64,000 nt of DNA from Eledone cirrhosa (lineage: Eukaryota). Where the stretch lies: contig OZ024759.1 in assembly GCA_964016885.1 (NCBI GenBank), forward strand, positions 21,018,001 to 21,082,000. The letters run 5' to 3'. The translations under genes and the position numbers were made by a program. Positions within the stretch are counted from its first letter, which is position 1. Each line of letters starts with the position of its first letter. Below, one piece after another: positions 9,568-11,934 of this stretch. The notes below the pieces were generated by a model that was not told where the DNA came from, did no database searches, and saw nothing but the letters and a program-made list of their open reading frames with translations.

Positions 9568-9696
9568 TATATATATATATATTCCGAAGAAGACGGTTTG
9601 ATCGAACCTATACATGCCAACACAAGAGCAAGAATGAGGGGCTCATTCTACTAACATGGCTTTAAAAATGAGGCTTCTTTGCATAATTGCAAACGA

Positions 9697-9762
9697 TAAA
9701 ATAAAGTACCAGTAATGTACTGGGTAATTGATGGCCTTGTGCCAAAAGTAGAAACAATTATT
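9697..9762 (+). mobile_element. 3' fragment of SINE family A inserted in the left direct repeat
   Basis: TAAAATAAAGTACCAG...GGCCTTGTGCCAAAAGTAGAAACAATTATT is absent from the right repeat. Confidence 0.85.
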
Positions 9763-9878
9763 AATATTCGAAAAACCCAGATTACATTTATTGTATTCAG
9801 CCATGTAGAGCGAAAACTTTCTTTTTTTAATTTGAATGTGGCAAAGCCGACCATTGATCATATACAGGATACTGACTG

Positions 9879-10815
9879 GCCAAATCTGGCTGATCAGTGG
9901 ATCTGGTAATATGCAGATCTGACTGATCCGCCAGTCTGCTAATATGCAAATCTGGCTGATCAGTGGATCTGGTAATATGCAGATCTAACTGATCCGCCAG
10001 TCTGCTAATATGCAAATCTGGCTGATCAGTGGATCTGGTAATATGCAGATTTGGCTGATCCGCCAGTCTGCTGATATGCAAATCTGGCTGATCAGTGGAT
10101 CTGGTAATATGTAGATTTGACTGATCCGCCAGTCTGCTAATATGCAAATCTGGCTGATCAGTGGATTTGGTAATATGCAGATCTAACTGATCCGCCAGTC
10201 TGCTAATATGCAAATCTGGCTGATCAGTGGATCTGGTAATATGTAGATTTGACTGATCCGCCAGTCTGCTAATATGCAAATCTGGCTGATCAGTGGATCT
10301 GGTAATATGCAGATCTAACTGATCCGCCAGTCTGCTAATATGCAAATCTGGCTGATCAGTGGATCTGGTAATATGTAGATTTGACTGATCCGCCAGTCTG
10401 CTAATATGCAAATCTGGCTGATCAGTGGATCTGGTAATATGTAGATTTGACTGATCCGCCAGTCTGCTAATATGCAAATCTGGCTGATCAGTGGATCTGG
10501 TAATATGTAGATTTGACTGATCCGCCAGTCTGCTAATATGCAAATCTGGCTGATCAGTGGATCTGGTAATATGTAGATTTGACTGATCCGCCAGTCTGCT
10601 AATATGCAAATCTGGCTGATCAGTGGATCTGGTAATATGTAGATTTGACTGATCCGCCAGTCTGCTAATATGCAAATCTGGCTGATCAGTGGATCTGGTA
10701 ATATGTAGATTTGACTGATCCGCCAGTCTGCTAATATGCAAATCTGGCTGATCAGTGGATCTGGTAATATGTAGATTTGACTGATCCGCCAGTCTGCTGA
10801 TATGCAAATCAGGCC
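9879..10815. repeat. 60-bp tandem repeat (~15.5 copies, two related 30-bp halves)
   Basis: Unit GCAAATCTGGCTGATCAGTGGATCTGGTAATATGTAGATTTGACTGATCCGCCAGTCTGCTAATAT-like; no variable spacers. Confidence 0.95.
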
Positions 10816-10885
10816 GGTCAGTCACTGTATATTTTAGAAAATAGTATATATTTTCAATAACTTTGACAGTTGGCAGGTGAATAGT

Positions 10886-10932
10886 GAGCTGTACTGATGA
10901 AGGGTAATACCCAGAAACAGTGTCTGCAGTTC
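10886..10932 (+). ncRNA. Type I hammerhead ribozyme with intact core and GUC triplet
   Basis: Stem I GAGCTGTA/TGCAGTTC (8 bp, 2 GU); CTGATGA 10894-10900; stem II GGGT-AAT-ACCC; GAAA 10914-10917; GTC 10922-10924. Confidence 0.85.
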
Positions 10933-11934
10933 TGTTTACATGCCAACACAAGAGCAAAGAATGAGGGGCTCATTCTACTGACATGGCTTTAAAAATGAGG
11001 CTTGTTTGCATAATTACAAACGAATCGAATATTATTATTATTATTAATATTCGAAAAACTCAGATTAGATTTATTATATATATATATATATATATATATA
11101 GTTCAAGGAGACAACAAACAGGGGTACAAGTAGTGTTATTGGAAAGAGGAAAGAAAGTACGACGTGTTGGACGTGTAGGAGTACAAAATAGAGAATAAAT
11201 AAATATATATATATATAGTGGTGGAACACTGGAAGGTAATATATATATATATATGTGTGTGTGTGTGTTTAACAGAAATTTGGTTTGTTTGTGATTTGGG
11301 GGTGGGATTTTCTGTATATTTTCTTCTTTAATAATTTTGTCTGCTACCATCTCCTACCAGTTGTAGTATTATATACCAGTTGTTGTATATCAATTACACC
11401 AATGACTAGCAATATTGTCCACCTATCTCAAGTGGTAACCACTAAGTCTCTGCAATTCTTTTACTTTCATCTCACTTCTATACATAACACACGTTATAAC
11501 CATTATTGTGCCAGCGCTATGTCGATTAGTGAATGCCTATTGTCATTGGCTTTGTCTTTTTGTCGTTGTTTGTGGTGTTGTGGTGATGTTTTTGTTGTTG
11601 TTTGTGGTGTTGTTTTGTTTGTTGTGTTTCTGTTTTTTTGTTTTTTTTTATTTTTTTTGTTTTTTTTTTGTTTAAGTTATATATTTATCTTTTTCTCGTG
11701 GAAAGTCATGTCAGAATCATTGTGTTGTCTACTGGTATGTGAAAATGTGTTTGTGTGTTTGTATGTGTAAATATTTGTGATTTTTTCTTGTGTGTGTGTG
11801 TATATATATGTGAATGTGTGTTTGTGTATTTGGGAGAACATGTATGTGTATTTATGTATATATGTGTATCTGTGAATATGTGTGTTTTTGTGTGTTTGTG
11901 TGTTTATGCACGTTTGTGTGTATATGTGTTTGTG

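Follow-up and report, generated by a model that had tools for sequence, protein, structure and literature searches.

The window, by which we mean the whole 64-kb stretch of DNA that was analysed, lies in a 3.0-Gb, microsatellite-rich animal genome and contains a locus made up of 1.3 head-to-tail units of a 440-bp non-coding repeat. A natural unit of this repeat (L005:1353-1792, 440 bp) was used as a ruler, on which the predicted hammerhead cut falls after unit position 258 and the window element reads as [271-438][1-406](TA)13. Specifically, an upstream partial unit on the plus strand (9611..9830), which by alignment to the natural unit covers unit positions 271-438, has the 3' tail and lacks a hammerhead core, is followed by a downstream plus-strand unit (9831..11079) that aligns from unit position 1 to ~406 and has a tail-less 3' end. 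The downstream unit carries, on the same strand, a 66-bp array (9881..10822) and a type I hammerhead within an extended helix I (10869..10947, with the core at 10886-10932 and the predicted cut after 10924), and its 3' end is at a (TA)13 target microsatellite (11075..11100) as called by TRF. No RT-like ORF was found among the open reading frames of the element, in agreement with a preliminary description of this DNA, and there is no inverted 5' arm at the window locus. The window copy differs by ~4% from the common letters of the family, the median over copies being 3.8%.

The preliminary description had also reported direct repeats at the two ends of the element, with the left one starting 12 nt 3' of the position equivalent to the cut. 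Both observations stand, as 9611-9796 can be aligned with 10937-11079 and the upstream unit is 5'-truncated at precisely that place. Since the window copy consists of 1.3 units arranged head to tail, these direct repeats are the overlap of the two partial units. The left copy runs beyond 9792, via the 3' tail, to ~9830, and it is longer than the right copy because ~70 bp of an unrelated abundant repeat lies inside it. This insert (9694..9763, plus strand), recognised as an alignment gap in the ATT-rich stretch of the unit, represents the 3' end of another short repeat, one that is far more abundant, matches many unrelated flanks, has a contig depth ~20 times higher and shares loose ends upstream, and which we take to be SINE-like. 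Contig depths were drawn from three contig sets of one sample and study, and these sets confirmed repeat depths and variants. The ATT-rich stretch (unit positions 364-373) is often interrupted at the same place in other copies (e.g. L071, L077, L082, L083, L095 and L103), and in the window and wherever the flank was read the interrupter is the same abundant, presumably SINE-like repeat, for which these positions look like an insertion hotspot.

The 5' side of the element is joined to a plus-strand piece (9582..9616) of a different dispersed repeat of ~190 bp, the 5' end of which is matched at 97% over 35 bp and the remainder of which was not found in the window. This repeat has 386 genomic matches relative to 2 for the control, and its ~190 bp are common to the loci L351-L362. 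The earlier statement that the element sits between (TA)n tracts thus holds for the 3' end, which adjoins (TA)13, but not for the 5' end, where the 35 bp of the other repeat intervene and (TA)8 lies beyond. Note that the junction of this piece with the element is a 6-nt near-match (9611-9616), so that the position of the window copy's 5' junction may have been set by microhomology. As only the first 35 bp of the ~190-bp repeat are present in the window, the junction may also represent a template switch or an insertion with deletion. In its other copies the ~190-bp repeat has a 5' start that resembles a decayed hammerhead core, 5' ends that cluster within ~15 nt, and a 3' end that is (TA)n.

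The array had been described as a homogeneous 60-bp array. An array is indeed present at 9881-10822, but its period is 66 bp, built from alternating 33-mers (2x33), and not 60 bp. It contains 14.3 copies, or 28 33-mers, with 97% matches (TRF), and its units 8-13 are identical. The normal family block has three 33-mers (76 of 91 complete blocks), the array variant is confined to the window locus (12 of 12 hits), and two private changes that occur in all 14 array units are absent from the blocks of the 254 family insertions sampled below (0 vs 68 and 0 vs 180). The array is an on-site expansion of the unit's native 33-bp subrepeats that occurred after insertion. This disposes of the idea of a minisatellite as an unusual mobile cargo of the element. 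A reading of the whole locus as a single-copy local tandem duplication, or as a mobile unit that carries a minisatellite, retains hardly any probability: the array itself is a local event, as this reading would have it, but the reading is refuted by the thousands of dispersed unit copies and by the occurrence of the array variant nowhere else. Two minus-strand frames are open across the array, and a coding repeat was considered and rejected since the array is an expansion of a non-coding subrepeat at a single locus. Smaller, independent expansions of the 33-bp subrepeat are present at L024 (8 copies) and at L013, L020 and L099 (4 copies each). Elsewhere in the window, a 12-bp minisatellite occupies 19987-22791 with 233 copies and 93% matches.

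The repeat family and the anatomy of its insertions

The window element is a single, decayed member of a 440-base non-coding repeat family with thousands of genomic copies. A 36-mer in the element's 3' region has 1,609 exact and 4,789 two-mismatch genomic matches relative to 0 for the reversed control, the right end of the element has 2,068 candidate matches, and the hammerhead core has 1,354 exact matches. The window locus taken alone is ordinary, and the usefulness lies in the family. We sampled 254 insertions via 3'-region patterns that are blind to the 5' end, with flanks of 1.5-5 kb. Set A contains 89 insertions (90 loci from the first 100 exact matches listed, minus one duplicate) and set B contains 165 (170 of the 286 matches to three single-variant patterns, minus five duplicates). 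The sampling pattern requires the tail, and insertions that have only a tail-less end are therefore missed.

These insertions exhibit the anatomy of Penelope-like elements (PLEs), for which the accessible part of one source gives hallmarks that include an optional 30-40-bp tail, an inverted copy and a microsatellite bias (PMC8557442). Specifically, an inverted 5'-truncated arm lies beside the direct copy in 157 of the 254 insertions, and the unit junction is crossed, giving partial tandems, in 85. Copies that reach unit positions 1-12 are all preceded by their own tail, by an inversion junction or by unrelated flank. The family has two 3' ends ~30 nt apart, with inverted arms ending at 395-409 in 98 of 157 cases and direct chains ending at 415 or beyond in 201 of 254, a count that is inflated by a sampling pattern that contained the tail. 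In PLEs, the tail corresponds to the interval that separates two RT start sites, according to what could be consulted of PMC11167929. Finally, (TA)4 occurs within 45 nt of the 3' end in 200 of the 254 insertions, as compared to 436 of 3,737 background windows (12%).

Autonomous elements that encode RT and GIY-YIG domains are abundant in this genome and have hammerhead-like motifs of their own. Among 50 GIY-YIG/PLE loci examined, out of 10,596 candidates, none is a partner that shares the unit sequence or has it as terminal repeat; the unit is present at 2 of the 50, in TA nests >1 kb from the matched ORF. A search with 13 PLE protein queries also gave no hit to a same-strand PLE ORF at a distance of up to 150 bp from any of the 254 insertions. 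As it has neither an RT-like ORF of its own nor an adjoining same-strand PLE ORF, the unit acts as a non-autonomous passenger of PLEs, and we infer that the family was likely copied by Penelope-type retrotransposon enzymes. These same searches bear on the reading that the unit is merely the pseudo-LTR of an autonomous PLE and the window locus a truncated remnant. Such a reading draws on the fact that all of the insertion hallmarks are those of PLEs, on the derivation of retrozymes from PLE pseudo-LTRs given in the accessible part of a preprint (bioRxiv 2026.07.22.740005), and on the small share of the GIY-YIG candidates that the 50 loci represent. It is nonetheless quite improbable, as the unit closes on itself head to tail, no same-strand PLE ORF adjoins an insertion, and the two PLE loci that do contain the unit hold it well away from the ORF.

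Several autonomous elements stand out in their own right. Long open RT plus GIY-YIG frames are present at L151:1809-4622(-) and L153:1775-5062(+), L163 is a tandem PLE pair of 99.6% identity, and L164 is an inverted PLE pair; these features suggest that the PLE families of L151, L153, L163 and L164 have been recently active and are candidate partners. At two further places, L363:3482/3578 (L047) and L364:5449 (L076), non-inverted insertions of the unit lie head to head with a 5'-truncated autonomous PLE ORF. The PLEs at these two places belong to different families, and their 5' halves were not found on the other side within 3-5 kb. These insertions could be chimeric events in which the two arms were copied from different RNAs.

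A second short repeat, at window positions 9361-9565, exhibits the same pattern of inverted arm, tail and (TA)n, and also occurs at 7205, 17045, 18201, 39274, 45838(-) and 54597(-), each numbered along the strand on which it was scanned. Its inversion junction in the window forms a 128-bp palindrome (9361-9488). The contig depth of this second repeat is ~10x that of the retrozyme unit, its 5' ends are strikingly uniform, and it contains a GAAA-hairpin-GUC motif (75 hits), with no upstream CUGANGA in the copies seen among these 75 hits.

The hammerhead and its family variants

The hammerhead in the window is of type I, with CUGAUGA at 10894-10900, GAAA at 10914-10917, a GUC triplet and a predicted cut after C10924. 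Its helix II has 4 bp, its helix III has 2 bp in the window copy, and its helix I has 8 bp plus two further helices. It had been presented as a canonical GUC hammerhead, which is correct as regards the presence of the type I core but not in two other respects: there is an extra A on each side of helix II, and 3 nt of helix III/loop 3 are missing relative to the family. The missing 3 nt leave a central mismatch in helix III of the window copy. The commonest family loop 3 accounts for 140 of the 158 tabulated, and the short loop of the window is found in 0 of the 12 listed variants. Searches with Rfam gave no match at the gathering score in the whole window, and in 9300-11200 no hammerhead family was matched at E values of up to 10.

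Across the family, 113 of 141 ungapped copies have an intact core, and each base pair of helices I-III is kept in 127-139 of the 141. Helix I has three frequent variant columns, in each of which pairing is retained (G-U/A-U, U-A/U-G and G-U/G-C), and no two-sided compensatory change is present among these three columns in the 141 copies. The family helix III can pair with itself over 10 nt, including two G-U pairs, and a weak self-complementary helix III is the design of dimer-acting hammerheads in the accessible part of PMC4209133. Two cores occur in only 6 of the 254 direct chains. With its single weakened hammerhead, the window copy could not release unit-length RNA by itself. Fifteen cut-to-cut intervals, two of them from the same locus, define monomers of 391-470 nt. 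Six of the 15 were folded as circles, which gave 32-40% GC, 64-71% paired bases and z values of -6.6 to -12.8 relative to 25 shuffles; base pairing between the 33-bp subrepeats is part of the predicted fold.

The 64-kb window contains ten more type I hammerhead-like motifs, at 2845, 8421, 37714 and 51660 on the plus strand and at 8014, 14109, 27536, 37583, 51572 and 58333 on the minus strand (counted on the plus strand). Some of these ten match motifs beside autonomous PLE ORFs in L150, L154, L156, L159 and L163.

5' ends of the family relative to the predicted cut

An excess of 5' ends close to the predicted cut was spotted in set A, which served for discovery, and was then tested in set B as a replication. 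The clustering of 5' ends after the cut that the preliminary description had predicted is observed at the level of the family, with 69 of 411 ends falling in a band at unit positions 259-278 as compared to 19 in 239-258; positions 279-298 contain 47 of the 411 (refined ends). The effect is weak in set A, where band, upstream and downstream intervals contain 23, 10 and 16 ends (p 0.018 for 23 vs 10), and it recurs in set B with 46, 9 and 31 ends (p 2e-7 vs upstream and 0.055 vs downstream). With refined ends, the best 20-nt window of the unit begins at 259-260 and a local change-point falls at 258-259, which is the predicted cut, and a single global step fitted on unrefined ends falls at 233-248. 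Within 259-280, 12.5 stops occur per 1,000 nt traversed, as compared to 3.5 just upstream and 4.3 downstream. A similar distribution is given by the inverted arms, which are unanchored by the sampling pattern and have 31 ends in the band, 8 upstream and 20 downstream.

There are several features of this distribution that count against a role of cleavage. The ends are spread over 259-288 with no spike at the first base after the cut (259), and part of the peak at 267 comes from a fold-back palindrome that is counted twice, as 12 insertions have both ends in the band. Counted per insertion, the band significantly exceeds the upstream interval (57 vs 19, p 7e-6) but not the next 20 nt (57 vs 44, p 0.12), and the non-inverted insertions taken by themselves have no significant excess (10 vs 5, p 0.15). 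The band holds 17% of the 5' ends, and the cut position is read through by 236 of ~300 arms. An additional 5'-end peak at 302-303 in the raw alignments was mostly gone once variant columns were allowed and was not used.

The distribution suggests that cleavage by the ribozyme preceded copying of the RNA. The step at 258/259 would then mark those templates, a part of the total, on which RT ran up to a self-cleaved end. The main rival keeps the same class of element and attributes the pile-up to RT that stalls or folds back in the extended helix I of uncut RNA, with cleavage being irrelevant to insertion. The coincidence of the band with the 3' strand of helix I (positions 259-280) fits such stalling, as do the spread rather than spiked ends, some of them at the palindrome at 267, and the accessible part of PMC11167929 reports uncleaved RNA as the main substrate in vitro. 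We nevertheless regard stalling as rather unlikely to be the explanation. The 3' strand of a subrepeat hairpin that is longer and predicted to be more stable (-55 vs -31 kcal/mol) has a stop rate at background level, 3.1 as compared to 12.5 per 1,000 nt, and the sharp edge of the band is on its cut side (258-259) and not at the helix entry near 280.

A different template, which the preliminary description had named as an alternative, is envisaged when the RNA is a ligated circular monomer that is copied more than once around in a rolling-circle manner. Read-through of the cut position by 236 of ~300 arms, together with the 99 arms that cross the unit junction, would be expected of circles, the monomers are predicted to fold as stable circles, and circles have been shown for coral, mussel and axolotl retrozymes in the part of PMC7229834 that was available. 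This proposal can be entertained only tentatively, as 0 of 254 direct chains cross the junction more than once (within flanks of only 1.5-5 kb) and uncut multimers account for the read-through equally well. Moreover, a sealed circle has no end at the cut, and the pile-up is therefore left unexplained by it. The pile-up at the cut points to linear cut RNA, and the read-through fits an uncut multimer or a circle; a circular template can be compatible with our preferred explanation for part of the copies.

That preferred explanation, to which we assign a probability of about 0.6, is that the window locus is a 5'-truncated 1.3-unit copy of a hammerhead repeat, likely inserted at TA by PLE enzymes and likely derived from partly self-cut RNA, in which a 33-bp subrepeat later expanded. 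Head-to-tail copies would be transcribed into multimeric RNA, in which some of the sites would be cut by their hammerheads, probably acting as dimers given that the family helix III is weak and self-complementary; the structure is visible in the sequence, and the activity is putative. A Penelope-like RT/GIY-YIG protein would nick TA repeats, and reverse transcription would start inside the unit at one of two sites ~30 nt apart; of this proposed step, the pair of 3' ends, the use of TA targets and the inverted arms are directly observed. The cDNA ends fall at a low background rate over the unit and at ~4x that rate in the 20 nt that follow the cut position, and this excess would represent RT that reaches a self-cleaved 5' end. 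Approximately 4 in 5 cDNAs would pass the cut position on an uncut multimer or a circle. The window copy would have been read past one cut site and stopped 12 nt before the next; it later decayed (~4%), and its A+B 33-mer pair was amplified 14-fold, following two private mutations. From the rates, the chance that its end in the band belongs to the effect is roughly two in three, an estimate that is weakened by the 6-nt near-match at the junction.

Considered as a family, the copies would be a fossil record in which a metazoan type I hammerhead cut germ-line RNA and the cut RNA templated a Penelope-type RT, with ~1/5 of the cDNAs ending at a ribozyme-made 5' end and the rest reading through uncut or ligated sites; we hold this to be slightly better than an even bet. 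If true, it would constitute direct genomic evidence for PLE-driven spread of animal retrozymes and for an in vivo role of the ribozyme. Several observations count against our preferred explanation. In the accessible parts of the respective sources, cleavage was dispensable in vitro for an anole PLE, for which no RNA-seq ends mapped to the cut (PMC11167929), and of 9 Xenopus retrozyme dimers 8 failed to cleave in vitro (bioRxiv 2026.07.22.740005). To these are added the lack of a partner in the 50 PLE loci and the 6-nt near-match. As regards the earlier proposal of a non-autonomous hammerhead retroelement, what survives is the multi-copy element of slightly more than one unit and the enrichment of family 5' ends just after the predicted cut, but not the array as its cargo.

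Comparison with known systems

The element is a non-LTR retrozyme-type, non-autonomous Penelope-like element, a kind that has already been described. We found no published report of this hammerhead retrozyme family or of 5' ends mapped to a PLE or retrozyme cut; Repbase, Dfam, subscription papers or preprint supplements may catalogue the family. The available portion of a 2020 review describes the in vivo role of PLE-type hammerheads as mysterious and states that animal retrozymes show no motif that names their mobiliser (PMC7761336). Mapping of insertion ends is a cheap genomic test of both this role and this mobiliser. Here, the mapping gave a PLE tail and inversion signature on a retrozyme-type unit as well as a 5'-end step exactly at the predicted cut, and the same approach is applicable to any animal genome that has such repeats.

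The comparisons that follow draw on the accessible parts of the cited sources. Plant LTR retrozymes resemble the window element in being non-autonomous, in bearing a hammerhead and in having direct repeats at their ends (bioRxiv 10.64898/2026.07.22.740005; PMC7761336). They have type III hammerheads in both LTRs, a PBS and PPT, and 4-bp target duplications (bioRxiv 10.64898/2026.07.22.740005; PMC7761336). In contrast, the window element has a type I hammerhead and a coreless left repeat, and its repeats are a permuted partial unit of variable length.

Closer similarity is observed with the EN+ PLEs (Penelope/Poseidon and Neptune; PMC4209133, PMC8557442, PMC11167929), which share with the window family partial tandems that form pseudo-LTRs, an adjacent inverted 5'-truncated copy, an optional 30-40-bp tail and microsatellite targets. 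The likeness extends to the ribozyme, which in both is a type I hammerhead in which helix III is weak and palindromic and helix II is preceded by an extra base. The window element differs from autonomous PLEs in that it has no RT or GIY-YIG ORF. A second difference is that RNA ends were not detected at the ribozyme site of the anole PLE, whereas genomic 5' ends of the window family are enriched just after it (PMC11167929).

Finally, the non-LTR animal retrozymes (PMC7229834; bioRxiv 10.64898/2026.07.22.740005) are like the window family in having head-to-tail units that are non-coding and contain one type I hammerhead each, low GC, a highly self-paired predicted circle, thousands of copies, and autonomous PLEs alongside. 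The unit size of 440 nt is slightly above the 170-400 nt of one source (PMC7229834) and within the 51-972 bp of the other (bioRxiv 10.64898/2026.07.22.740005). Two consecutive complete hammerheads, the arrangement termed active in the latter source (bioRxiv 10.64898/2026.07.22.740005), are not present at the window locus, which has one core only. Copies of the window family are mostly dispersed, truncated and inverted, whereas the non-LTR retrozymes form long arrays, and the insertion ends mapped here for the window family display the PLE tail, the inversions and the step at the cut.
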